Origin: Saprospiraceae bacterium
GTDB lineage: Bacteria > Bacteroidota > Bacteroidia > Chitinophagales > Saprospiraceae
NCBI GenBank assembly: GCA_020628475.1
Contig: JAHDFB010000003.1
Span: 10,142-74,141, forward strand
Reading direction: 5' to 3'
DNA: 64,000 bases
A model generated the notes under the pieces. That model had not been told where the DNA came from and ran no database searches. It worked only from the letters and a program-made list of their open reading frames with translations. Below, piece after piece: positions 2,876 to 50,885 of this stretch. The position numbers and the translations under genes were made by a program. The first letter of the stretch is position 1. Each line of letters opens with the position of its first letter.

Positions 2876-5176
2876 TTAACGTATGAGCGTGATGACACCT
2901 TTTTCTTCAATCAATTGCTGATCCGCATCGAGATAGCTGTATTTGTACACATAAATGTCCGAAGGTAATTCACGACCTTGATTATTAATTCGGCCATTCC
3001 ATCCTAAGGCGATGTCATCCGATTGGAACACGCGTTCCCCCGATCGCGCATAGACCTCCATGTAAAAGTCTTCGATCAAATCTATATTTCCTTTACCTTT
3101 GAATAGATCATTGATTCCATCCCCATTCGGAGAGAAAGCATTCGGAATAAAAAAGCTTGAAGTAGGGCGTATCAATAATGTCTTCATGATTGTGTCGGGA
3201 CAACCACTTGGGTGAAGCGCAATCAGTTCAATCGTATGAAGTCCGATAGTATCAAAAACATAATTTGGATTAGGTTGATAAACTGTATTTTCATTATCGA
3301 ATATATACTGCCAACTAATCGCATCCGTCGATTCATTTCTGAATTGAATCACAACATCATTTCCTTCCGGATTTTCAGGGGTAAATGAAAAATCAGCAAT
3401 CGGCGCAGGCAATACTTCAATCCAAAAAGGATATTCTCGGCTTACATAACAATCCAATGGGCTGGTTATCTCAATTCCTACTGAATAAACACCCACTTCC
3501 TTGTAATCATGCACTTCATTGAGATTTGTTCCAAAGGTACCGTCTCCGAAATCCCATAGTATATCGTAGCTATCATCTATTGGAGTAGAAAGATTATTAA
3601 AAATAATATTGGCGGGAGAACAACCAGCAAACGTATTCGGTTCGACAACAACGACCGGAGGTGCCGGATAATAATCAAATTCTTTTTCGATCATATTCGA
3701 GCAACCATTTAAATCGGAAGTCGTCAATCGAACGGTTTTCGTACCAGGAGTCTCATAAAAATAATCGGGATCCTGAATATTACTTCCATCTCCTCCATCA
3801 AACTCCCAGTCCCAGGTCAATATAACGCCAGTCTCACTCATCGAGGCGTCTTCAAATTTGACCTTTTCAGCAACACAGGTATCGTAATCCAATTCAAAAT
3901 CTGCCACCATATCTGGATACACATCGATTTCAAGGAATAAGGTATCCGAACATCCATTACTTTCTGGATTCAAAACCATTAAACCTGTATAAAAACCAGG
4001 TTCAGGAAAAGGGACGGAAACATCTCTCGTATCATATTCGACAGTTTCTGTTGGTGATAAGAAGAATCTCCACAAATATCCTTCAATCGTCGCTTCATCT
4101 TCCGATTCATTGATAATATCCAATGGTTCATCTCCGCAATGTTCTAATTTGAGATTTTTCCCAACGATAACCTCAGCATCTTCAATAGCCGCACTTACAT
4201 TGATTATACATTCCGTAACATTGAATTGAAAATCTCGTTGAACAACACCTAATAATTCTCCATCCAGATACTCACTTATACAAACCCCGACCACATATTG
4301 CCCCAATTCCATAGGACTTCCAGTCATCATTCCTGTATTGGAATTAATCTGCAAATTTGCCGCAGTTCCCAGTGGATTCGAAAAACTAAAATTGGGTAAT
4401 TTGAACACCAACTCATCATATGGTGGTGGGCACATGGAAACATCTGGATTGATTCCTTCACAATCCCAGACATTACCAGGATTTCCAAATAAACCATTCG
4501 TTCCTCCACCATCTAATGGTGCACAAAATTCATAAACCAAGGTATGTCCATCCGGATCCGTAGCACTGTGATCAAAAACAAGATCTTTATTTCCACAAAT
4601 GATGGGAGGTGGTAAGTCATTAAATTTTGGTGAGTTATTACAGATTTGTTGTGCTAACGGAGAAATAGAAACCGTGAATGAAACGCCAGCTTCCTCCGGC
4701 TGTACGATATTTACAATCGTATTATTTCTACAACATCGTTGGTAAACAACCATATAAGATTCATCATTTGAAACCGGAAATTGAAATTCGAATTCATACG
4801 TTCCTTCGTCCAAACATACATTTGCTGGTGGTTCGATACAAGGATCATCGGTCAAAGGTAAATCCGCATCAATACTGATACCCGCATTCTTAAACTCAAC
4901 AAATTCCCAATCATCACCTGATCCTCGAAACAAATAAAAATCACCCGGATCATCGAATTGTGCTCCTCCACCCTGACAGTCCCGATACATTTTAGCTGTA
5001 AATGCAAACGTTGCGTATTCTACCCCATTGATCACATCAATACCCAAACAATCATAGGTTATTTCACCTCCTACCAAATGCGCAGAATACAGATCACGAG
5101 GGCCGATCAAGAAAATCAGGAAAGCAAGGACGAACATTACATGTTTCGATATGCTGTAATAAGTAGACATAAACAA
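2876..5176 (-). CDS. T9SS type B sorting-domain (gliding motility-associated C-terminal domain) protein with PKD-like repeats
   Basis: 766-aa ORF with a hydrophobic N-terminus and a Cys-rich N-domain (HLVGGEITYDCLG...YRDCQGGGAQFDD). It has PKD-like repeats (WDWEFDGGDG, WDFGDG). The C-terminal FFIPNAFSPNGDGINDLF motif is typical of type B T9SS tails. Confidence 0.85.
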   Translation of the reverse strand: MFMSTYYSISKHVMFVLAFLIFLIGPRDLYSAHLVGGEITYDCLGIDVINGVEYATFAFTAKMYRDCQGGGAQFDDPGDFYLFRGSGDDWEFVEFKNAGISIDADLPLTDDPCIEPPANVCLDEGTYEFEFQFPVSNDESYMVVYQRCCRNNTIVNIVQPEEAGVSFTVSISPLAQQICNNSPKFNDLPPPIICGNKDLVFDHSATDPDGHTLVYEFCAPLDGGGTNGLFGNPGNVWDCEGINPDVSMCPPPYDELVFKLPNFSFSNPLGTAANLQINSNTGMMTGSPMELGQYVVGVCISEYLDGELLGVVQRDFQFNVTECIINVSAAIEDAEVIVGKNLKLEHCGDEPLDIINESEDEATIEGYLWRFFLSPTETVEYDTRDVSVPFPEPGFYTGLMVLNPESNGCSDTLFLEIDVYPDMVADFELDYDTCVAEKVKFEDASMSETGVILTWDWEFDGGDGSNIQDPDYFYETPGTKTVRLTTSDLNGCSNMIEKEFDYYPAPPVVVVEPNTFAGCSPANIIFNNLSTPIDDSYDILWDFGDGTFGTNLNEVHDYKEVGVYSVGIEITSPLDCYVSREYPFWIEVLPAPIADFSFTPENPEGNDVVIQFRNESTDAISWQYIFDNENTVYQPNPNYVFDTIGLHTIELIALHPSGCPDTIMKTLLIRPTSSFFIPNAFSPNGDGINDLFKGKGNIDLIEDFYMEVYARSGERVFQSDDIALGWNGRINNQGRELPSDIYVYKYSYLDADQQLIEEKGVITLIR

Positions 5177-5338: not shown

Positions 5339-6892
5339 CTAGTCCTTTAAAAAATCGGCAAATATATTTTCGAAATTAAGTACTTCTTGGGCCTTTAGAA
5401 TAAATGGATCTCTAGCATATTTTTGCAATCGAGCTGGATCCTGTAATCCTAATTGATACAATATTTCTGTCTGAACCAAATTAGTATGTAAATCAACAGC
5501 AGCTGGGTCAACAATTCCATGATCCAGCATAAATTGTTCTTCGTTTTCCTTAGCACTTTCCACCATAACTTGCGCATTGAAATCGGGCATTTGACCAGGC
5601 CGTAGTCCGAGTCTATTGACAATGCTAAAAGCTTCAGACACAACCGTCCTTCTGGTTATATCTTCTGTTTTCATCATGACATCATCATACTGGACGACAT
5701 AGTCTGGCATAATACCACCCTGCGCGTCTAAAGGACGTTGTAAGGTTTTTGTCTTATATTCAATGGTATCATTGATCTGATCAATATCGTAAGGTGTTTG
5801 AATATATCTTCCCGACGGCGTAAAATATCGTGCCGTTGTCAATCGAATACTACCGCCATTGTTCAAATCAAATTGATCTTGAACCAAGCCTTTACCATAA
5901 GACTGTTCACCGACTATAATTCCTTGATCCCAATCTTGAACCGCTCCTGCAATAATTTCACTAGCACTAGCTGAATTTCGATTGATAATGACCGCCAATT
6001 TTTCCACTCTATAGAAGGGCCTACCTGTCGTTTTATATTCCGACTTATTATTTTTCCCTTGCGTGTAAACAAGTAAACGCTTATCCTCCTCAAATAACTG
6101 ATTTAAGATTTTAGTGGCTTCTTGAAGATATCCACCAGGATTATTTCTCAAATCGATGATCAAAGATTCAATGATCTTATCCTTTTGAAAATATTCCAAA
6201 GCCTTTACAATTTCCTCATAGGTATCATCGCTAAACTTTTCTATATTCATGTAGGCATTATCACCGATATAAAAGTAATCTACATTTGGATATTGAATTT
6301 TTTCTGGTTTAATTTCCACCTGTTTCAGCTGATTCTGAACATCCAGTAATTGCATGGAGATCGATTGTCCATCATCCACTTTCAGTAATGCCCACTGATC
6401 TTCTACGGCCATACCCACTCCGGCAACCATGGTGTCTTGAATATTGATAATTCGATCACCATATGACAAGCTGGCCTTTTCAGCAGGAGAACCTTCCATC
6501 ACTTTTGTAATTCGAAGCGTATCATCAAGTACAATGGTTTCTATGCCCACTCCCCTATAATAACCAGACATACGTTGATTGATCTTTCCAATATCCGTTG
6601 CAGGAATATATACTGAATGAGGATCTAATTGATCAAAAATAGCGATTGTTGCGGCATCCATTAATTTCTCTTCATCGACCTCATCCACATATTTTGACTC
6701 GATAAAACGAAGCAACTCTTCCAATCTCCCAATTTTTCCTTCCTCTCCTTCATAACTTTTTATGAGACTCATGGATCGCCCGTTTTGCTCACCGGACATT
6801 CTAAAACCGACGAGCATTCCAAAAGCCGTAAAACCAGCAAATAACAGCGGATACCAAATTTTTGATTGTTGTAACTTCGATTTTCTTGTCAT
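5339..6892 (-). CDS. S41 family C-terminal processing peptidase
   Basis: 517-aa ORF with an N-terminal TM helix, a PDZ-like segment (KVMEGSPAEKASLSYGDRI) and S41 motifs NRNSASASEIIAGAVQD and GEQSYGKGLVQ. Confidence 0.85.
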   Translation of the reverse strand: MTRKSKLQQSKIWYPLLFAGFTAFGMLVGFRMSGEQNGRSMSLIKSYEGEEGKIGRLEELLRFIESKYVDEVDEEKLMDAATIAIFDQLDPHSVYIPATDIGKINQRMSGYYRGVGIETIVLDDTLRITKVMEGSPAEKASLSYGDRIINIQDTMVAGVGMAVEDQWALLKVDDGQSISMQLLDVQNQLKQVEIKPEKIQYPNVDYFYIGDNAYMNIEKFSDDTYEEIVKALEYFQKDKIIESLIIDLRNNPGGYLQEATKILNQLFEEDKRLLVYTQGKNNKSEYKTTGRPFYRVEKLAVIINRNSASASEIIAGAVQDWDQGIIVGEQSYGKGLVQDQFDLNNGGSIRLTTARYFTPSGRYIQTPYDIDQINDTIEYKTKTLQRPLDAQGGIMPDYVVQYDDVMMKTEDITRRTVVSEAFSIVNRLGLRPGQMPDFNAQVMVESAKENEEQFMLDHGIVDPAAVDLHTNLVQTEILYQLGLQDPARLQKYARDPFILKAQEVLNFENIFADFLKD

Positions 6893-13341: not shown

Positions 13342-13352
13342 GCAATGGATCT

Positions 13353-13529
13353 GGGGCGTCCAGTGTATAGCGTCACAAAAGTTATGCTATACACTGGTCG
13401 GGCCGTCCGGAGTTTCACAAGTTCATCCTTCCGCACGATGTGCGTTCAGGATCGAGCATCCATTTCATGTCCGCTCGCCTCCTACCACCCCTTAGCCTAT
13501 ACATTCAATCACTGCTTCGTCGGATGAAC
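13353..13529 (+). repeat. GC-rich structured intergenic element, copy A
   Basis: The layout is GGGGCGT, then a 12-bp perfect hairpin (CCAGTGTATAGC 13360-13371 / GCTATACACTGG 13386-13397), then TCGG ... TCATCCTTCC. Next comes a hairpin GCACgatGTGC (13433-13443), then TTCAGGA ... CGCC ... GGATGAAC. It aligns with the copies at 16901, 42507 and 44332, and starts 11 nt after the stop of the upstream gene. Confidence 0.7.
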
Positions 13530-13596
13530 ATTTTTCTGGCCCTGACCAACCATGTTCTACGTTGGAACGTCTTATACTGTAAAAAGCATTCGTTCT

Positions 13597-14004
13597 ATGT
13601 ATAAGCTAATCATTCCATTACTTTCTTTCTGCCTCCTTTATGCTTGTTCTAAAGACTTACAACAACAAGAAATTTGCATCGATGATGTCTGTATTGATGG
13701 TCATTGGAATTGGTTAGAATCCTATGGCTCCATCGCTGGTATTACCATCACCCCTGAAACAGAAAATGAAACGAAAAAACTAATCATTGACGAAAATAGC
13801 TTCCAAGGCTTTGTCAATGATAGCATGACCGTATATACAGGTTATGAATATGTTAAGACGGATGAGCTAGAAACATTTACGAATGATAGTCTCGTGCTCA
13901 AATTAGAAAGTGGTCAATGGTATGCTGTATTTCGAGAAGCGAATAAACTGATCTTATTCGAACCCTGTGCTGATTGTTGGCAACACACCTTCGAACTTGA
14001 CTAA
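13597..14004 (+). CDS. hypothetical lipoprotein
   Basis: The ORF track gives 13552-14004. The internal ATG at 13597 yields a lipobox-like MYKLIIPLLSFCLLYACSKD. I recognised no family. Confidence 0.55.
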   Translation: MYKLIIPLLSFCLLYACSKDLQQQEICIDDVCIDGHWNWLESYGSIAGITITPETENETKKLIIDENSFQGFVNDSMTVYTGYEYVKTDELETFTNDSLVLKLESGQWYAVFREANKLILFEPCADCWQHTFELD

Positions 14005-14867
14005 AAACGAAAGAGATCCGATTCATCAATCGATGCCAATCGATGACTTAAGGTCTCGTCCATATCCAAAATATTTAATTCTTGAGCAAAGGATTCTAAA
14101 ATGAAAAACAGGGAATTAAACTGTTTAACCATCGATTTATAATAACTACCCTCTAGAAAACTCTCTTTTAATTTTGGAACGTCTTGATCCAAAAACCGCA
14201 TGTTGGAAGAAAATAAAATACTAATTTCTTTATGATCCGTCGATACCATCACAGATCCTTGATTTTTCTGCAGATATTCAATAAACGGAAAGAGGCGATC
14301 CAGCGTTTCGTGAAAAGCGATTTCATCGTTTGTGATATACGAAATATCGTATTCCTCATGATTGGTGTATCTTGTAAAGAAGCGTGAAAAAGCGCCTTGT
14401 TTCGTAGTTATCTTAGATCGTGGAAATATCAATTCTTCCGTAGCAAAACTAAATAGGATTCCACTGAATTTCGTGACTCGTTTTTTCTTGGTCATTCCAT
14501 CTTTATCCGTACTTCGATGGATATCGATCAAGTCAATTTCTGAAATATAGAATGGGATATCATACATAATACCTTTGATCACGTCTTCCTCATCACATTC
14601 GTCGAAACTCATCAAACCAGACTTTCGAACGATATCTGATCCATCATTAGAAGCCAGCTTAAATTCATAAAAACATGCTGGATGATACTGATGCATGTAC
14701 AAATCGACCAATGCTCTCTTATATCTCTTTTTTAGCTTTAAATAAGGTGCTGAGAAAACCCGCGTCTTAATGAATCCAATAATTCCACTGGAAGCTTTCT
14801 CATGGATTGATTTTCGTTCTTCTTCCAGATCTCGAATGGTTTGTTGTAAGTTTTCTAGCTCGGACAT
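14001..14867 (-). CDS. hypothetical protein (possibly DUF3137-like)
   Basis: 288-aa ORF with an N-terminal coiled-coil-like segment. The DUF3137 resemblance is tentative and from memory only. Its stop overlaps the convergent upstream gene by 4 nt. Confidence 0.55.
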   Translation of the reverse strand: MSELENLQQTIRDLEEERKSIHEKASSGIIGFIKTRVFSAPYLKLKKRYKRALVDLYMHQYHPACFYEFKLASNDGSDIVRKSGLMSFDECDEEDVIKGIMYDIPFYISEIDLIDIHRSTDKDGMTKKKRVTKFSGILFSFATEELIFPRSKITTKQGAFSRFFTRYTNHEEYDISYITNDEIAFHETLDRLFPFIEYLQKNQGSVMVSTDHKEISILFSSNMRFLDQDVPKLKESFLEGSYYKSMVKQFNSLFFILESFAQELNILDMDETLSHRLASIDESDLFRF

Positions 14868-15199
14868 GAGATTGTTTTTTGGATGCTTGGCATAGGTACA
14901 AAGTTATAAAAAGGAAAAAAAGTTGAAGATCATATTGGATGAAGTCTTATTTGACGTCGATAAAGTTTGAATTTCTCACTTAGTTGAAAATCAGAGGATC
15001 AGAACCTGTTGAATCTACTCCGATATCAAACATCGCCATTAAAAGAAGCATCATCGATCCTAGTATACCATTCGCATGCAATATAACCGCTTGATTTTAT
15101 TAAGACGATTCCTATACTAAATGTAGATATCAAAAAATATTCTAAAAGATTGATCCGTTATCAAAGCCTATTTTACACATAATTTAAGCGCATTTTCGC

Positions 15200-16243
15200 A
15201 TGTTCAAAGCTCTTTTATTCGTTGCATCGCTAATGCTTTGCAGTCTCTACATATCCTGTGATCACAGTCCGAAATTTTCCGAATGGGAAGAAGAAACCTT
15301 TTATGTCCGCAATGGCGGAAGTGACATGCCTGCTTTTGTACGCGGTAATACAGCATCAAAAACCTTCGTTGTCTATTTAGAAGGTGGACCAGGATTCGGC
15401 TCTTTGTCCGTAGAAGGTCATCCATTTGCAAATGACTTAGAGAAAGATTATGCCATGATTTATTGGGATCAGAGGCATACAGGAAATGCACATGGACATT
15501 TTAATAAGGAAGCCATCAATATTAATACATTGGTGCAGGATCTAGATGCCTTAGTCAAAACGATCAAACTCCGATATGGAGATGATAGTAGTATTTTCTT
15601 AATGGGCGCCAGTTGGGGAGGAAGACTGGCCTTATCCTATCTTGTAACAGGACAACTTCAAGAAGACATTCAAGGATGGATTTCAGTAGCAGGTGTCAAT
15701 ACCGACAATGATTACAAGGATCGTAATGAATGGGTACTAAACTTAGCCGCTGAAGAAATAAATAAAGGCAAGCAATTGGAAGCCTGGCAAGAAATTGTCT
15801 CTTATTTCAGTGCCCTGGATACGATCAATAATCTATCTCCTGAAGAACGTGCTGTGCGACAAAACTATATCAGCCAAATATTACATGAGCTCATCATCGA
15901 TTACATCCATCCTGGCACTTTATTATCTAGAGAAACCTCCAATGCGCATGATTTTCGCGTCAATGGATGGAATTTTAACAATTGCCCTTTATCCGCTCGG
16001 GATTCGCTCCAACAGATTTACTATGGACCAGAGGATCTTTCCATCATTAAAAGTCCAACATTACTTATTTATGGAAAATACGATTTTGTGGTTCCAGGTA
16101 TTCAAGGACAAGCTATTTATGACCATTTAAGCAGTGATTCTAAGTACTTCAAACTTTATGAACATTCAGGACATGGTCCCATGTATACAGAAGCTGAATT
16201 GTTTGTCTCCGATGTAACTAGCTTTATCGATCTTCATAAATAA
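15200..16243 (+). CDS. alpha/beta hydrolase (proline iminopeptidase-like)
   Basis: 347-aa ORF with a signal peptide, the oxyanion-region motif GGPGFGS, the nucleophile elbow GASWGG and a C-terminal HSGHGP. Confidence 0.8.
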   Translation: MFKALLFVASLMLCSLYISCDHSPKFSEWEEETFYVRNGGSDMPAFVRGNTASKTFVVYLEGGPGFGSLSVEGHPFANDLEKDYAMIYWDQRHTGNAHGHFNKEAININTLVQDLDALVKTIKLRYGDDSSIFLMGASWGGRLALSYLVTGQLQEDIQGWISVAGVNTDNDYKDRNEWVLNLAAEEINKGKQLEAWQEIVSYFSALDTINNLSPEERAVRQNYISQILHELIIDYIHPGTLLSRETSNAHDFRVNGWNFNNCPLSARDSLQQIYYGPEDLSIIKSPTLLIYGKYDFVVPGIQGQAIYDHLSSDSKYFKLYEHSGHGPMYTEAELFVSDVTSFIDLHK

Positions 16244-16269
16244 TCTGATTAATATACTTTAAAATTTCA

Positions 16270-16926
16270 ATGCCCTTTCTCATGTTTCACCATACCTCAC
16301 ATTTCAAATCCCTCGCATACATAGGCCTATTTGGATTACTTTTTTCAATAAAAAGTCTTGCACAAGATTCTAGTCAGCCAGTAAAAACCATTCCGATTGT
16401 GGTCAGTTATTTCAGTCATGAATACATTCATCCAGGGCTCAAACTTGGCACCGAGCACGTCATTCATCAATGGGGAAAAGCTAAAAATTCTAATAGGCAT
16501 TACAAACCAAATCGTATCAGCCTCCATCCTCAATTGGCTTTCAATGTTCACTATGAAAATCATAGCGTATGGATTGCAAATCTAGAGCTATCCGTTCAGC
16601 ATCAACTATTTCTGGGATGGCATCTGGCCTACTCCTTAGGCATAGGCAATCTACGACACTTGAATTGGGGGACGACATATGAACTTCAAGATGATGGATC
16701 TTTAGAAGCCAAAAGATGGGCAAGTCGCTCATACTTTTTACCCAATGTCAACGCAGAAATAGGCAAACGAATCAATTCAAAATGCAGTGCCTTTAGCAAG
16801 ATTACCGCTGCTGCAAGAACTAATTATAATACGATTCCTATTCTCCCTCAGGTCTATTGGGAAATAGGAATAAAGATTCATGTACCAACAAAATCGAAGG
16901 GTTCATCAACATCGAAACCCGCGTGA
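16270..16926 (+). CDS. hypothetical secreted beta-rich (outer-membrane-like) protein
   Basis: 218-aa ORF with a signal peptide ending SLAQDS. The last codons and the stop lie inside repeat copy B. Confidence 0.5.
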   Translation: MPFLMFHHTSHFKSLAYIGLFGLLFSIKSLAQDSSQPVKTIPIVVSYFSHEYIHPGLKLGTEHVIHQWGKAKNSNRHYKPNRISLHPQLAFNVHYENHSVWIANLELSVQHQLFLGWHLAYSLGIGNLRHLNWGTTYELQDDGSLEAKRWASRSYFLPNVNAEIGKRINSKCSAFSKITAAARTNYNTIPILPQVYWEIGIKIHVPTKSKGSSTSKPA

Positions 16927-17051
16927 GGAATGTGGAGAGTGGCGACAACGGAGCCATCCTGACGTCGCAGACGGAATGGATGAGTCGCACGAAACTCGAA
17001 ACTCTCCGACCCCGCTAATGAAATGCAATGAAATTTGGCGGGGGCACGCCC
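16901..17051 (-). repeat. GC-rich structured intergenic element, copy B (reverse orientation)
   Basis: Read on the reverse strand it begins GGGCGT, followed by a hairpin (CCCCGC / GCGGGG; plus-strand 17039-17044 and 17010-17015) and TCGG ... TCATCCATTC. Then comes a hairpin CGTCtgcGACG (plus-strand 16963-16973), TCAGGATGG ... GTCGCC ... GATGAAC. Confidence 0.7.
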
Positions 17052-17082
17052 ACTTTACTAAAACTATATGTATTTTTGAACT

Positions 17083-17544
17083 ATGGTAGATGACATTGAT
17101 CTCAAAATATTGAACTTCCTGTTATCCGATGCTAAAATGACCTATCAGGAAATTGGAAAGGCCCTATTCATATCCCAGGGTACCGTGCATGTCCGTGTGA
17201 AGAAAATGATGGAAGCCGGTATTATTGCGGGCTCCAAGGTCTTAGTAAACTATGACAAGTTAGGATTCGGCGTGAGCGCTTTTATAGGCATCTATTTATC
17301 CAAGAGCTCTTTGTATACCACGGTGATCGAGGGTTTATCCGGCATTGAAGAGGTGATAGAAGCACATTACACGACCGGTGTCTACTCCATATTGGCTAAA
17401 ATAGTGTGCCGAGACACCAACCACTTAAGAGATGTATTATCCGTAAAGGTGCAATCCATCAAAGGCATCCAGCGAACAGAAACCTTGATCTCGTTAGAAG
17501 AGGGCATTCAACGACCAATTACCCTATTTAATCAAGTTCCTTAG
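17083..17544 (+). CDS. Lrp/AsnC family transcriptional regulator
   Basis: 153-aa ORF with an N-terminal wHTH ([37 protein letters not shown]) plus an AsnC-type C-domain. Confidence 0.85.
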
Positions 17545-29070: not shown

Positions 29071-32000
29071 ATGAAGAGCAAACTTATCATTCTTTTTTCA
29101 TGCTTATATTACACTATTGTAAATACGAATCATTTAAGAGCACAAGGTTGTCCAGACGTAAATATTTCACTTGAAACCCAAGAACAGGTAGATTCTTTAT
29201 TAATTAAATATCCAGATTGCAAAGAAATACTAGGCAACTTAAATATTGGTGCTGATATTGAAAATTTGCATGGACTTCTTGGAATTACACATATATATGG
29301 AGGGGTGGTTTTACAAGAGAACAATCATCTAAATGATTTTATTGGTCTTGATAGTTTAGTTTTTATTGGTAAATTGAAAGGAGATGGAGTGACTTACATC
29401 GCTGGTTATTTCTTTCAAAATGATCCTTGTGATGAGCCAACTCCGAAATATGGAAAACGCAAAGAATTGTCTTTATTTATCCACAACAACGCTTCCTTAA
29501 AAAATTTGAATGGATTAGAAAAACTAACAAATATCGAAGGAATGCTTTGGATATATAAGAACAGTAAATTACTCCATATTAATGGTTTATCAAACTTAAA
29601 ATCCATAGGCAGTGGTAATTGGGGTTATTATGATATTGAAAATTCCAATTCGCATTTAACCTCAAATATATCGATCGTTATCGATTCCAATGCTACACTT
29701 CAATCTATTGAAGGACTTAATCAAGTTAATGACTTAACGGGTGCTTTACGAATTATTGATAACAAAGAACTTGAAGGAGAAGTTCTACACAACTTACATA
29801 AAATAGGCACTGGTTGGTATTATCATGGTGCCCCTGAAAATCCTTTTGATACTCTTTTTCAATCAATCACAATCAGGCATAACAAAAATCTTTCATGTCT
29901 AAATGTTGGATTTTGTAGAGCAATTACTAATCATAATTATATAAGCCTAAATAATAATGGAATTGATTGCTCTGATAAAGAATTAATGAAATTCAACTGC
30001 GAATATTTAGGAAATATTCTTCATCCAGTTTTTTATGACTTTAATCAAGACGGGGAATACACAATAGACGAACCCTTATTAAATGGATTTAATATTCATG
30101 CCGAACCAGGTAATTTCAATTCTTTAACAAATCAATCGAATGGAGGTAAAATATACCTTCCAACAGGATTCTATGAAGTTGGTATTGATACTACAGCATT
30201 AGATGAATGGAATGTCAGCTCTGATTCCATAAGTTACACGATTCATGTTGACAGTCTTGGGTTCATGGACTCCCTATTTTTTGGAGTTTATCCAGCTGAA
30301 CAAGTTTCAAACATGCAATCAAACATTTTTCCTTCAAACCATCGTTGCAATGAATTTGCCAAAATTTCTGTCATGGCAGAAAATAAGGGTACCACTTCTA
30401 CATCTGGAACCTTATGGCTACAAGCCGATGCAAATATTCAAAATATTCAATATGTAGATGTACCTGACACTATAATTGGCGATACTCTTTTTGGTTGGTA
30501 TTTTGCAAATTTATTTCCTAGAACGAACCTCATAAAAGAAATAGAATTTCAATTACCAGGTCCTCCTGATTTTCCAATTGGTGATCCTATAAATTACAAC
30601 AGCAAAGTCATTTTTACAGATTCAAATGGAAAAGATTCTACTTCACAGATAAACAGTGCTTTGCTTGAATGCGCCTATGATCCAAATGATAAATTAGTAG
30701 CCCCTATTTATCCAAAAAACTATGCCTTAATTGAAGAGGCGTTATACTACACCATTCGATTTCAAAATACAGGGAATGCCTATGCCAAACATGTCATTAT
30801 TCAAGATGTATTAGATGAAAATCTTGATGCAAATAGTTTTGAACTTATAAATGCAAGTCACTTCGATGTGCTATCTGCCAGTATCAACGATAATGCGCAA
30901 GTAACCTTTGACTTTCACGAAATTTATTTACCAGACAGCACAGAAAATTTAGAGGAAAGTCAAGGTTTCGTTACTTTTAGTATCCGAACTAAGGAAGGAA
31001 TAATTGACCAAACAATAATAAATAATTATGCCGATATCTATTTCGATTTCAATCCCGCTATAACTACCAATACCACTACAAGTATCATGGTGCACACTTT
31101 TGATGCAGATGAAGATGGAATCTATATTTGGATTGACTGCGATGATCACGATGCAGAAATAGGTGTAGCTACGGAAGAAATTATTTATGATGGCATAGAT
31201 AATGATTGTGACCCTAACACCTTAGACGATGATTTGGATCAAGATGGTTTTACGCATGACGTAGACTGTGATGACCAAAACAAACATGTCAATCCTGGAA
31301 TGGTTGAGATCGCTTATGACGGCATCGATAATGACTGTAATCTTTTAACGCTCGATGATGACTTGGATCAGGATGGTTATACGCATGAATTGGACTGTGA
31401 TGATCAAAATGAACATATCAATCCAGATATGGTAGAGATCATATATGATGGTAACGATAATGACTGTGATCCTCTGACTCTCGATGATGATTTAGACCAA
31501 GACGGTTATACTCATGATATTGATTGCGATGATCAAAATGAACATATTAATCCTGGAATACAAGAGATCGCCTATGACGGCATCGATAATGATTGTGATC
31601 CTCTGACTCTCGATGATGATTTAGACCAAGACGGTTATACACATGATATTGATTGCGATGATCAAAATGAACATATCAACCCTGGAATACAAGAGATCGC
31701 ATATGACGGCATCGATAATGATTGTGACGCTTTGACATTTGATAACGATGTAGATCAAGATGGTTTTATTTTAGAAGAAGATTGTGACGATACAAATCCA
31801 AATATCTATCCAGGTGCTATTGAAATTTCGAATAATGCTATAGATGAAAATTGTGATGGCCAAGATCAAATCATCGAATCAATTTCAGAATCCATTATGC
31901 TATTTCCGAACCCTGTAAATGACCGACTGAATGTATTATTAAAAGAATTATTCCCTTATAATTTTAATATACAAATTTACAATATGACTGGCCAGAGGGT

Positions 32001-42506: not shown

Positions 42507-42624
42507 GGGCGATGCCTGTCGGCCCCAGCTCTTCGTTGTTTCCCTAGGGTCATCCATTCGCTATGGCATAGCTCAGGACCTCCTTTCAGTCGGCAACTAC
42601 GATCTGTATCGCAGATTGAAGATC
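42507..42624 (+). repeat. GC-rich structured intergenic element, copy C (short form)
   Basis: The layout is GGGCGAT ... TGTCGG ... TCATCCATTC, then a hairpin GCTATggcATAGC (42560-42572), then TCAGGACC ... GTCGGC. Hairpin 1 is absent. The 3' limit is uncertain. Confidence 0.6.
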
Positions 42625-42630
42625 TAATAA

Positions 42631-43311
42631 TTAAAGTGTATACATAGCACCTAGTTGTACCCCAATTTGATATGGATAAACCTTGTACAACAAAAAATTG
42701 TGCATATAGAAGGCCTGTTGAGCACAGATTCCATAACTTAAATCGATCCGTCTAGATAGTTTCTGAGCATATAGAACCCCCAAATTATAGCTCAATATAG
42801 GCTTAAAATGATATTGCCAAATGGATATATCCATATTGATAGAATGATCCATAAAGATCTTATCCTTTTTAAGATCAAATAAGATATATCGCACCCCAGC
42901 TGACAACCCAAAGGTATAAATATCTATTTCTAAATCCAATATAAAATAATCTACTGGAAATGGATCATAATAAAAATATTCTCGAACCACTCGCTCCTTA
43001 TAAGATCGTTTCACGCCATGTATACCCAGGAGCAGCGAGTATTTCGAATCAATAATATAAGCATACTTCAAGTCCAATTCAATGCCTTGACTTCCACGGA
43101 CATAAATAAGACTATCGTAGGGCGAATATGACATACTTCCTACGTTTGCTCTATTGGAAAAATAATTCGTATACAAAGGTGAAATGGATAGATCAATAGT
43201 TTTACCGCTATCCTGAGCATACAAGCTTTGGACTGTCAACAGTATAACAGTGCCAATACTGAAAATCATTTTGATATAGGTAAAAGGAGATCTAAACATT
43301 CTACTATCCAA
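42631..43311 (-). CDS. hypothetical secreted beta-rich (outer-membrane-like) protein
   Basis: 226-aa ORF with a signal peptide ending SLYAQDS and an alternating beta pattern. It overlaps the upstream gene by 8 nt. Confidence 0.5.
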   Translation of the reverse strand: MDSRMFRSPFTYIKMIFSIGTVILLTVQSLYAQDSGKTIDLSISPLYTNYFSNRANVGSMSYSPYDSLIYVRGSQGIELDLKYAYIIDSKYSLLLGIHGVKRSYKERVVREYFYYDPFPVDYFILDLEIDIYTFGLSAGVRYILFDLKKDKIFMDHSINMDISIWQYHFKPILSYNLGVLYAQKLSRRIDLSYGICAQQAFYMHNFLLYKVYPYQIGVQLGAMYTL

Positions 43312-43681
43312 ATTTACGAAGTCCGATGAGATACAATACGCCTATGGGTTGCAACAGAATCCATTGAGGTGCAAAAACCGAGAAATAAATACTAGAAATG
43401 ACAAATGGAATGCCCATTAAAATATATAGTATTGCCAAGGGGCGCAAGGCTTGCAATCTAGATCGTTCTACCTCCGAAAATCCAACGGTTAATATCAGGT
43501 AGGAACTATAAAAAAGTATTATGGTGACAATATGCCAAGCACCAATCCACTCCGCTTGTTGTTGGGCCGTAAGCGAACTATTCATCAAAGGATCGACCAG
43601 CGTCCATTCTCCTCCAATCAAGTGGATGAAGGCAGTTAAAAGATTGATAATCCCAGCTAGTTTAATAGACCATTTTCGCAT
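43304..43681 (-). CDS. hypothetical membrane protein
   Basis: 125-aa ORF with four hydrophobic helices. It begins 2 nt after the TetR-family gene stop. Confidence 0.5.
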   Translation of the reverse strand: MRKWSIKLAGIINLLTAFIHLIGGEWTLVDPLMNSSLTAQQQAEWIGAWHIVTIILFYSSYLILTVGFSEVERSRLQALRPLAILYILMGIPFVISSIYFSVFAPQWILLQPIGVLYLIGLRKFG

Positions 43682-43682
43682 T

Positions 43683-44234
43683 TCAGATGGTTATAAAGTG
43701 ACTTAATTCGTGTTTTACTTGGCTCAAATAATCCGCCTCTTGCTTTTTATATCGGATCATCTCGTGATATCCGATGAGATACTTGTAAAAAATACTCGAC
43801 TTTATAGCAGCATCATTCACCGTATATCCAAGTCCTTGTAATAAATCAGCAGTAAATTGAATGCGCTGTTGATCCAATCGAGTGATAGTATCTGTGAGTG
43901 GAGGATTGCCTTGAGCGTATTTTTTCAGATAAAAGAAAAAATCAATCTCGTCATCTTTAAGAAAAGATAATTCGATCAATTTTTCAAATTGATTCATTGG
44001 ACTAGAGGCCTTATTGACCTGTTCGATAATCTTGGAAGTGCTCAGCATTTCCCAATATTGGATGATGGCTTGGACGAAGGCTTGTTTATTGGTAAAATGC
44101 CAATAAAAACTGGACTTATTCACCCTCAATTTCTTGGCCATACGTTCTACGATCAGGCCATCAATCCCCTTATCTGCGAATTGTTTATATCCCAATACTA
44201 TCCAGTCTTCTTTCGTAGCTATTATTTTTGGCAT
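43683..44234 (-). CDS. TetR/AcrR family transcriptional regulator
   Basis: 183-aa ORF with an N-terminal HTH (GIDGLIVERMAKKLRVNKSSFYWHFTNKQAF). Confidence 0.8.
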   Translation of the reverse strand: MPKIIATKEDWIVLGYKQFADKGIDGLIVERMAKKLRVNKSSFYWHFTNKQAFVQAIIQYWEMLSTSKIIEQVNKASSPMNQFEKLIELSFLKDDEIDFFFYLKKYAQGNPPLTDTITRLDQQRIQFTADLLQGLGYTVNDAAIKSSIFYKYLIGYHEMIRYKKQEADYLSQVKHELSHFITI

Positions 44235-44331
44235 TTTATTAAACGGTTGCGTTTATTAAACAAATATACAAAACGCATTCAATCTAAACGATACCGTCTA
44301 ATAAATTATAATCGTGGCATATAAGCTAAGT

Positions 44332-44524
44332 GGATCATCGAACTCGTGCGATAGCAACATGAAGCACTTGTCCCGAGTGATGGTATCACGAGTGGATGAG
44401 CAGTTTGACTGCGAATGCGCAATACTGCGACAGCCGCATCCATAAACCCGAAATATGCATTGAGCAAGAAATTCTTCATGGTAGATGGATCTATTCCATC
44501 ATCAAACCCGCGGCTGGATCGCCC
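44332..44524 (-). repeat. GC-rich structured intergenic element, copy D (reverse orientation, long form)
   Basis: Read on the reverse strand it begins GGGCGAT. A stem CAGCCGC / GCGGCTG (plus-strand 44431-44437 and 44510-44516) encloses a 72-nt insert. TCG ... TCATCCACTC follows, then a hairpin GTGATaccATCAC (plus-strand 44377-44389), then TCGGGA ... CGC ... GATGATCC. It starts 3 nt after the TonB-dependent receptor stop. Confidence 0.7.
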
Positions 44525-49768: not shown

Positions 49769-50506
49769 TTAATAACTTACGGTATAAGGAAGTGACAAGT
49801 CACCGGATGCAATAGAATAAACGGCATATACTCCAAGCATAGGTCTCTCAGAATCTGAAGCATTTACTTGCATATAAGCACTTACAGCATCAAACTGAAA
49901 ATTGGTTTTATTCTTAATTCGGTATGCTGGAACAATTACTCGAATCGTATGCCCTTTCGCAACTACATGAAATCCTGGTGAATCCATGTACATGGGCATT
50001 CCTGGATTAGTAGTCGGTAAAATCACTTGATCGCGAGCCGCGTCAAATTGTTTAACAGAAAGTCCTCCTCGCACTCTTTTGTCTTCCTGTAATACAACCC
50101 AATGGGGATGCCAGATTCCTCCTTCGCTCATGTTACTTGGATTACCATCCATATCTTCATCCCACAGTGGGGTATCATCAAAATCGGGATGAGAGGTCAC
50201 CGCAAGAGCTACAATTCCATCAGTTTGACTAAATCCTACATCAGCTGGCTTCAGAGTGGTTGGAAAAACATATCCCAACACAGGAGCTCCATCCATAGAT
50301 CCGACTGCCTCTGGATACGATTTGCCAGCCTTTCCCGCCACCGCTATAGTAAATATGAAATGCTCTAACCGATCATCATAAAGCACCGATGTATTGGTGA
50401 TTTTCAAATCTGGACTATTTTGAAAAGATGGGTCTTCATTTTCTCCCTGTGCAGAAAGTATTGCTATACTATAAAAGAACATAAACAGGATAATTAAAGG
50501 TTTCAT
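49769..50506 (-). CDS. hypothetical secreted protein
   Basis: 245-aa ORF with a signal peptide (MKPLIILFMFFYSIAILSAQG). I recognised no family. It has a His/Asp-rich patch (SHPDFDDTPLWDEDMDG ... WHPHW). Confidence 0.55.
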   Translation of the reverse strand: MKPLIILFMFFYSIAILSAQGENEDPSFQNSPDLKITNTSVLYDDRLEHFIFTIAVAGKAGKSYPEAVGSMDGAPVLGYVFPTTLKPADVGFSQTDGIVALAVTSHPDFDDTPLWDEDMDGNPSNMSEGGIWHPHWVVLQEDKRVRGGLSVKQFDAARDQVILPTTNPGMPMYMDSPGFHVVAKGHTIRVIVPAYRIKNKTNFQFDAVSAYMQVNASDSERPMLGVYAVYSIASGDLSLPYTVSY

Positions 50507-50605: not shown

Positions 50606-50839
50606 TTAAGCTCTAAGGTCTTCAATCGAAGCGCCAAAGTTGATATGTAACACATTTCCTGAAGGTGTAATCAAGGCTGGAACAGATTTGACACCAGCGA
50701 TTACGGCTTCTTCCACGCGGCTGCTGTCTTCACCGATATGCACGACGTCGACATTTTCTGCTCCGACTAATTGGATGATATCTTCTTCTGCATGGATGCA
50801 AACGGGACATCCAGCATGATAAAAAATAGATTTACTCAT
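50606..50839 (-). CDS. small thioredoxin-fold protein (CPVC; redox-active disulfide protein 2-like)
   Basis: 77-aa ORF with a CPVC motif at residues 11-14 and a downstream VPAL (cis-Pro-like). Confidence 0.65.
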   Translation of the reverse strand: MSKSIFYHAGCPVCIHAEEDIIQLVGAENVDVVHIGEDSSRVEEAVIAGVKSVPALITPSGNVLHINFGASIEDLRA

Positions 50840-50885
50840 AATTTAAATCTTTAAAAAGGACATTAGCAATATTGCTAGAACAAAT

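Follow-up and report, generated by a model that had tools for sequence, protein, structure and literature searches.

Structured intergenic elements at the borders of accessory gene cassettes in a Saprospiraceae bacterium

Introduction

Integron attC sites (59-base elements) are among the closest described counterparts of the elements that we report here from a 64-kb stretch of Saprospiraceae DNA (the window, meaning the whole stretch that was analysed). Like our elements, attC sites flank cassettes, conserve their fold while leaving the sequence almost free, form mostly Watson-Crick pairs, keep a few invariant bases at the base of the fold, and vary in length through a variable terminal part. 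The differences lie in the boxes, the fold, and the layout. Our elements have no R''/R' boxes (RYYYAAC / GTTRRRY; the motif GTTCATC, read directly, does not match GTTRRRY) and end in GGGCGAU/AUCGC or GGGCGUG/CACGC. An attC site is one bulged hairpin, present once per cassette in direct orientation, whereas our elements are multi-helix structures with two junctions, and two inverted sites flank each cassette. The cassettes also differ in carrying several genes, on both strands, and no IntI or attI was seen in the window.

The REP, BIME, and REPIN sequences that go with RAYT proteins are, like our elements, GC-rich intergenic hairpins, often found just past stop codons and in inverted pairs; they persist for long times and may act on mRNA ends. 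A REP, however, is a single imperfect palindrome of ~20-40 nt with a conserved GTAG, near-identical within a genome, whereas our elements span 106-177 nt, form five helices, are 39-56% alike, lack GTAG, and have no RAYT in the window. MITEs (Correia/NEMIS, ERIC, RUP, Nezha) are likewise small non-coding intergenic repeats with a patchy distribution that can flank and mobilise cargo. In contrast to MITEs, our elements have as their only terminal inverted repeat a 5-bp helix, P1, against a criterion of at least 10 bp; they lack a population of sequence-similar copies, and their orthologues are under purifying selection. The ends of IS200/IS605 elements, PATEs, and the omega-RNA of TnpB, which adjoin tnpA/tnpB or have left-end and right-end hairpins on one strand, are also unlike our elements: the window has no Y1_Tnp or OrfB domains, and the paired copies lie on opposite strands.

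Among RNAs, HDV-like ribozymes form a nested double pseudoknot, in which the 3' strand of P1 comes directly after P3 and P2 closes outside, whereas the topology that we read for our elements is strictly nested (P1 > P2 > H2, H3). Orphan structured non-coding RNA motifs have been described from GC-rich intergenic regions of AT-rich genomes (Breaker-lab GC-IGR/DIMPL; PMC6429828, PMC8723152, PMC11109978). These motifs resemble our elements in lying in a GC-rich intergenic region, in their covarying helices and conserved junction nucleotides, and in belonging to no known family; they differ in that most occur once per genome and in a single gene context, whereas our elements are multi-copy, independent of orientation, and located at cassette borders.

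Results

A scan of the window with the core pattern TCATCC-N12-22-TCRGGA gave five matches against 0.30 expected, and none of 100 shuffles reached five. The fifth match, at 50157, is part of an ORF and forms no hairpin. Once a stem of at least 4 bp was added to the pattern, only the four named sites were left, even with one mismatch permitted; the same stem-filtered pattern in 30 shuffled windows yielded 0-3 matches, mostly 0. These are the four segments to which the initial annotation had drawn attention, and when we re-read the sequence their coordinates and strands were as it gave them, and the stems it quoted were correct and Watson-Crick throughout. It had also described the segments as richer in GC than their surroundings. 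Indeed, they are the GC-richest intergenic regions of the window: their best 60-nt windows have a GC content of 0.55-0.62, compared to 0.22-0.45 in the other true intergenic regions, and no other true intergenic site in the 64 kb reaches 0.55 in a 60-nt window. The only other GC-rich "intergenic" stretch, at 50610-50840, is explained by an unlisted minus-strand ORF of ~76 aa with a CPVC motif (MSKSIFYHAGCPVCIHAEED...) and is no family member.

Generic repeat finding in the window does not connect the four copies, because only 39-56% of aligned positions are common to these paralogues. The window has other repeats. Four tandem 129-nt repeats, 71-77% identical, lie at 31175-31857 within the gene for a 1021-aa secreted protein and correspond to repeated MopE-type metal-binding motifs. 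The segments 1212-1671 and 4387-4849 (repeats D2 and D11), ~3.17 kb apart, are 72-78% identical; the gene for the PKD/CHU_C secreted protein may thus have a paralogue on the minus strand that extends past the left end of the window.

By its Mrp and sigma-70 proteins, the window belongs to an uncultured lineage of Saprospiraceae. We found orthologues of two copies in Logan SRR26831635, whose Mrp and sigma-factor proteins are 93% and 86% identical to those of the window: an orthologue of the third copy (c3) lies upstream of Mrp in contig L121, and one of the second copy (c2) lies upstream of AsnC in contig L127 (11357-11505). Homology between orthologues starts at GGGCG and stops at the complement of its last five bases, and these limits therefore define a closing helix, P1. 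The conserved unit runs from GGGCG(A/U)(U/G) through to that complement; it measures 106-177 nt in the window and 264 nt in the L121 orthologue, and in the window it is shorter than the segments first outlined. The copies and their parts are as follows.

13353..13497, plus strand: copy c1, unit from P1 to P1, identified by the core pattern, stem filter, alignment, and covariance model
13353-13358 (GGGGCG) with 13486-13491 (CACCCC): P1 of c1, atypical, with one C.A mismatch
13360-13371 with 13386-13397: hairpin H1 of c1, 12 bp
13409-13412 with 13479-13482: helix P2 of c1
13423-13428 and 13446-13451: TCATCC and TCAGGA of the c1 core
13432-13436 with 13440-13444: hairpin H2 of c1
13453-13457 with 13473-13477: hairpin H3 of c1
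13516..13529, plus strand: 3' tail box of c1, TTCG..GGATGAAC, outside P1
16921..17051, minus strand: copy c2, unit from P1 to P1, GGGCGUG...CACGC, with its orthologue at L127:11357-11505
16957-16983: core of c2
16901-16920: tail box of c2
42507..42612, plus strand: copy c3, the minimal unit, 106 nt, GGGCGAU...AUCGC, with its orthologue at about L121:5956-6219, minus strand
42550-42578: core of c3, whose H1 is cut down to GCC/GGC
44348..44524, minus strand: copy c4, GGGCGAU...AUCGC, with an H1 interior of ~72 nt
44371-44399: core of c4
44332-44342: tail box of c4

The closing helix is GCGAU/AUCGC in c3, c4, and the L121 orthologue and GCGUG/CACGC in c2 and the L127 orthologue; these two variants are two compensated pairs apart. 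P1 encloses the hairpin H1 and the helix P2. H1 follows directly after the 5' strand of P1, has a stem of 3-17 bp, and carries loop inserts of up to ~135 nt (in L121). P2 occurs as GGAG/CUCC, GGAGAG/CUCUCC, GUUG/CAAC, and GUAA/UUAC and, less certainly, as GCAG/UUGC. Inside P2 lie the invariant UCAUCC-AYUC-[H2]-UCRGGA, in which UCC pairs with GGA, and the hairpin H3. The center of the fold is thus an invariant asymmetric internal loop with the 3-bp helix UCC/GGA, capped by the freely varying H2.

This fold extends and in places corrects the plan first proposed for the segments. Both of the hairpins in that plan exist, but the plan was incomplete, missing the nested long-range helices P1 and P2 and the third hairpin, H3. 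The "CGCC-like" block exists as well; rather than a mere flank, it is the 3' strand of the closing helix, whose partner is the 5' GGGCGAU, in five of the six sequences. Hairpin 1 had been called missing from the copy at 42.5 kb, but it is present there as a 3-bp stub, GCC-UGUC-GGC, and has a 17-bp stem in the L121 orthologue. The 3' tail, TTCG..GATGA(A/T)C, can be seen; as a part of the unit it does not stand, lying outside the closing helix and not being conserved in the orthologues of c2 and c3.

The tail box of c1 is complementary to GTTCATCC of the core. On L121, the stretch that separates the c3 orthologue from the TonB-receptor gene has two direct repeats of ~40 nt (5716-5860; AATATTCGATGATTGATCGTAGTCGAAATCTCA and AATATTCGGTGATTCAGCGTAGTTGAAATCTCA on the element's strand). 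These repeats contain the TTCGATGA box that is also found in the tails of c1, c2, and c4; the tail could thus be a small module in its own right.

To quantify the pairing, we aligned six sequences (c1-c4 and the orthologues on L121 and L127) by hand with N padding, since MAFFT on the raw copies could not align the paralogues in a structurally consistent way. The aligned segments were checked against the genomic sequences. In this alignment, which was fitted to the structure so that its covariation figures lean in favor of the fold, 97.5% of cells pair (six sequences, six helices, 30 pairs), compared to 36-44% after a shift of the 3' partners by 1-3 columns. Both sides have changed in 21 of the 30 pairs. 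None of 500 shuffles attains any of the observed pairing measures. RNAalifold run on the hand alignment returned helices identical to those proposed, and P1, H1, and H2 all appear in the unconstrained minimum free energy folds of four of the six sequences (c2, c4, L121, and L127).

The most independent evidence of covariation comes from compensations between orthologues, at positions fixed by conserved flanks. Between c2 and L127, H1 changes from CCCCGC/GCGGGG to CCCUGC/GCAGGG (C-G to U-A); between c3 and L121, P2 changes from GUUG/CAAC to GUAA/UUAC (U-A to A-U and G-C to A-U). Compensating mutations keep the fold, and the element is therefore functional. These changes and the orthologues bear out the proposal that the segments form a single family in which secondary structure is selected.

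The ~153 paired cells of the hand alignment include a single G-U pair, a count that is biased, as helices were sought as perfect complements. The strand named in the initial annotation is C-rich, and the reverse strand forms the more stable fold in all six sequences; either strand may therefore be the active one, even under an RNA model. Read on the reverse strand, the invariant loop is UGA/GAAU and could form tandem sheared G.A pairs, which we note as a lead only.

Comparison of orthologues shows that the sequence is retained as well as the fold. Outside the H2 region, c2 and L127 agree at 86 of 94 positions (91.5%), and within it at only 27%; even so, both H2 stems are perfect. Between c3 and its L121 orthologue, identity is 81% outside H2 and 13% within. 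By comparison, the AsnC coding DNA of the window and L127 is 74% identical overall and 43% identical at third codon positions, near saturation. The identity of the elements far exceeds that of the AsnC third positions, which indicates strong purifying selection on the elements; such selection would exclude both decaying selfish repeats and chance resemblance. For H2 and the H1 loop, pairing is the only constraint, if there is any. Thus, of the earlier claim that selection acts on structure rather than sequence, the structure part stands; the words "rather than" do not, as 81-92% of the sequence is kept between orthologues except in H2 and the H1 loop.

The conserved sequence goes beyond the common motifs. 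About 70 nt of copy-specific sequence is 91% identical between orthologues. The copy-specific single-stranded CACUCUCCACAUUCCUCACGC, for example, is the same in c2 and L127. A -7-like box of the Bacteroidota type (TAGTTTTA / TACTTTTA), read by eye, precedes GGGCG by 7 nt in c2 as well as in L127. Orthologous sites are syntenic on the 5' side and differ in gene content on the 3' side.

The distribution of the elements among relatives is patchy. No element is present at the Mrp site in relatives with 82% and 77% Mrp identity or at the AsnC site of Logan SRR26831621 (L130), whose sigma factor is 84% identical to that of the window. A metagenome scan for orthologues of the c2 type found none, and P0126 and P0127 (446-aa sigma factors) and P0133 have no synteny with the window. 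As far as the data reach, the family is confined to a narrow Saprospiraceae lineage.

In the relative with 82% Mrp identity, four tandem units of GAATAGCT lie upstream of Mrp, at the place of c3 (L126:60-100). In L130, the string GGCGATGCCT, with which both c3 and its orthologue begin (10 nt), occurs upstream of the sigma-factor gene (595-604) with no core after it, which may be chance or a remnant. The genes for the AsnC-type regulator and the primary sigma factor are convergent, and their 3' ends overlap by 4 nt in the window (17541-17544) and 22 nt in L127 (10855-10876); this arrangement is conserved in three genomes.

We searched for further members with the kind of covariance model that the initial annotation had proposed, built from the copies and orthologues; derived from an N-padded hand alignment, these models are crude. 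The full model recovers c1, c2, c3, and both orthologues (E-values of 1e-9 to 0.15) with no other match at E<=10 across 153 kb. Turning the filters off revealed no additional copy in the window and left c4 at noise level; because of its insertions, c4 scores weakly with the models (11.8-17.6 bits). When c1 was left out of the training set, it was the best non-training match (17.5 bits, E ~0.01); c3, when left out, was the top non-training match with exact ends, but at an E-value of 0.74. An apparent fifth core, at L130:196-223, was rejected as the coding sequence of a START-like gene.

The elements had been said to match no known RNA family, and the database searches agree. Rfam 15 gave no match at the gathering score across the whole window, within a scope that takes in riboswitches, hammerhead, twister, twister-sister, hatchet, pistol, and HDV-like ribozymes, HEARO and IS605-orfB motifs, 6S, SRP, and RNase P. 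Each copy searched alone at E<=10 gave just unrelated eukaryotic and viral noise, off the element core. ARAGORN found no tRNA or tmRNA genes in the window, and blastn against plasmid and phage collections returned nothing. A scan of a genome collection with the core pattern gave, among the matches listed, chance matches across many phyla; among these, none of 100 loci from other taxa with an exact core has the architecture at the pattern site, as judged by stems, flanks, and the covariance model.

The four copies form two convergent inverted pairs with their 5' ends outward, located at the borders of gene cassettes. The initial annotation had the four copies but missed this inverted pairing. 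The association of the elements with cassette borders is a new finding.

13342..17082: cassette A, c1, four genes (150, 288, 347, and 218 aa), and inverted c2
42507..44524: cassette B, c3, three minus-strand genes, and inverted c4, between the Mrp and TonB-receptor genes

In cassette A, only the 347-aa protein, an alpha/beta hydrolase, has a Pfam domain; the other three genes have no family assignment. The cargo of cassette B consists of a 226-aa unknown protein, a 125-aa membrane protein, and a TetR regulator. Across the two cassettes, five of the seven cargo genes lack a Pfam or NCBIfam assignment (window 13552-16926 and 42631-43681). The cargos show no homology to each other, and a concatenated word-index query with five cargo and flank proteins found no relatives of the four genes of cassette A, returning only matches to the PA14 protein; these genes may be true ORFans, or a word-index search may miss their relatives.

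Every copy has a stop codon within 12 nt of one end or overlapping it. c1 starts 12 nt past the stop of the PA14-protein gene and c4 starts 4 nt past that of the TonB-dependent receptor; c2 and the 218-aa gene overlap at the stop codon of the latter, and 7 nt separate the end of c3 from the stop of the 226-aa gene. The other copy of each pair, c2 or c3, adjoins the promoter region of the next conserved gene and has its 3' end at the stop of the last cargo gene. The start codon of AsnC is 32 nt from the 5' end of c2. We found no promoter or terminator common to all copies, and a scan for sigma-70-type promoters was uninformative.

In L130, an orthologue of the PA14 protein (65% identity over the last 156 residues, E 2e-65) is followed by a 29-nt spacer and then by AsnC. 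The whole of 13342-17082 (3.7 kb), both elements included, is therefore an indel. At the Mrp site of the closest relative, on L121, there is a solo c3 orthologue without c4 or cargo, next to a TonB receptor that is 55% identical. Neither the four copies nor the borders of cassette A show a target-site duplication, but the L130 spacer is too diverged to place the junction exactly. A RAYT or IS200-type partner had been suggested; Pfam finds no transposase, integrase, HUH, or RT protein among the window ORFs scanned, and so no such partner there.

Discussion

We conclude that the elements are a real, undescribed family of structured intergenic elements. Their family membership and fold, their compensatory evolution and purifying selection, and their border position and presence/absence polymorphism all come directly from the comparisons above. 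For what the elements do, we favor a tentative reading, to which we give a probability of roughly 0.45: that they are boundary elements acting at the RNA level and recognized by a protein.

Under this RNA-level reading, we infer transcription, an active strand, a protein partner, and an effect on transcripts. An element would be transcribed as the end of a neighboring transcription unit, because every copy begins or ends no more than 12 nt from a stop codon or overlaps one. The transcribed element would fold, and a trans-acting protein would recognize the invariant loop and the GGCG motif; to our knowledge, Hfq and ProQ are absent from the phylum Bacteroidota. As a result, transcript ends could be defined, processed, or protected where conserved genes meet accessory cassettes. 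An architecture of five nested helices and two junctions is typical of RNA. The conserved junction nucleotides, the copy-specific conservation, which exceeds what a generic protein-binding site needs, the position at transcript ends, and the -7-like box at c2 and L127 also favor it. Against it, a single G-U in ~153 cells is unusual for RNA and fits folding on both strands or a role as DNA; both elements and the cargo are missing jointly in L130, as expected of a mobile DNA unit; and the copies share no promoter or terminator.

Some of these same observations lead to the strongest competitor, that the elements are ends for recombination or mobilization at the DNA level, either the ends of non-autonomous cassettes or attachment sites for cassette exchange. 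A recombinase encoded elsewhere would recognize a folded single strand and a few invariant bases, following a logic like that of attC but with multi-helix, inverted pairs. We regard this as a doubtful but serious reading. Both pairs are convergent, with outward 5' ends and accessory genes enclosed, and c1, cargo, and c2 are wholly missing at the orthologous PA14-AsnC junction of L130, where just the 29-nt spacer stands; the Mrp site also varies in presence and absence among close relatives. As in attC sites, the paralogues have ~25 conserved bases and a fold in common, and pairing is almost wholly Watson-Crick. Synteny on the 5' side, with varying gene content on the 3' side, also fits DNA ends. 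On the other hand, the window ORFs scanned with Pfam include no integrase, transposase, HUH, or RT, there is no visible target-site duplication, and the element at the L121 site stands alone. Identity between the two ends of a cassette is just ~55%, the ~70 nt of copy-specific sequence conserved at 91% is far above what a generic recombination site needs, and nested junction folds are rare among DNA sites. Moreover, the indel could also come from homologous replacement of the interval between conserved genes. The more specific proposal that Bacteroidota have a hitherto unknown cassette-mobility system with the elements as its folded ends, read as single-stranded DNA or via an RNA copy by a recombinase encoded elsewhere, seems to us improbable.

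Another possibility is that each copy is a gene in itself and encodes one of a set of paralogous small RNAs that act in trans, with a common protein-binding scaffold and copy-specific sequence for pairing with targets. This would account for the strong conservation of copy-specific single-stranded sequence between orthologues, as in CACUCUCCACAUUCCUCACGC, for the promoter-like box kept upstream of c2 and L127, and for divergent paralogues that retain one fold. But c1 and c4 start 12 and 4 nt past stop codons, so there is no intergenic room for a promoter, no terminator is consistent among the copies, and the inverted pairing at cassette borders is left unexplained; we consider small RNAs quite unlikely.

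Decaying selfish repeats of the MITE or REP type, without present function, would likewise be multi-copy, intergenic, GC-rich, hairpin-forming, and patchy among relatives. This explanation is strongly disfavored, however, by orthologues that are far better conserved than neighboring coding DNA, with stems changed by compensation, by the 39-56% likeness of the copies, by the lack of long terminal inverted repeats and target-site duplications, and by the absence of a RAYT or transposase gene from the window. Lastly, chance resemblance among GC-rich intergenic segments, to which one might look since the common motifs are short and the core pattern turns up by chance in many unrelated genomes, is refuted for practical purposes by the excess of the core pattern, the stem filter, and the shuffle statistics, by the recovery of held-out c1 as the best non-training match (E ~0.01), and by the lack of the architecture at the pattern site in all 100 pattern-matched loci of other taxa (among the matches listed).

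Several known structures were considered and dropped as not fitting all copies: hammerhead, twister, HDV-like, and tRNA-like or SINE folds; a K-turn or box C/D-like loop on the reverse strand; Tn7-like ends (TGTGGGCG); a riboswitch with the tail as its expression platform; a small ORF starting in GATGAAC; and an AsnC operator.

Should the elements work as DNA, they would join integron attC sites as a second case in which fold, and not sequence, defines a recombination site, and they would explain how small gene cassettes without a recombinase move in Saprospiraceae. If they act as RNA, as we favor, they would form a new multi-copy class of structured RNA linked to the borders of accessory genes, and the invariant internal loop should point to an RNA-binding partner. 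On either reading, the 106-nt c3 (42507-42612), together with the two orthologue pairs, provides a compact, testable object.
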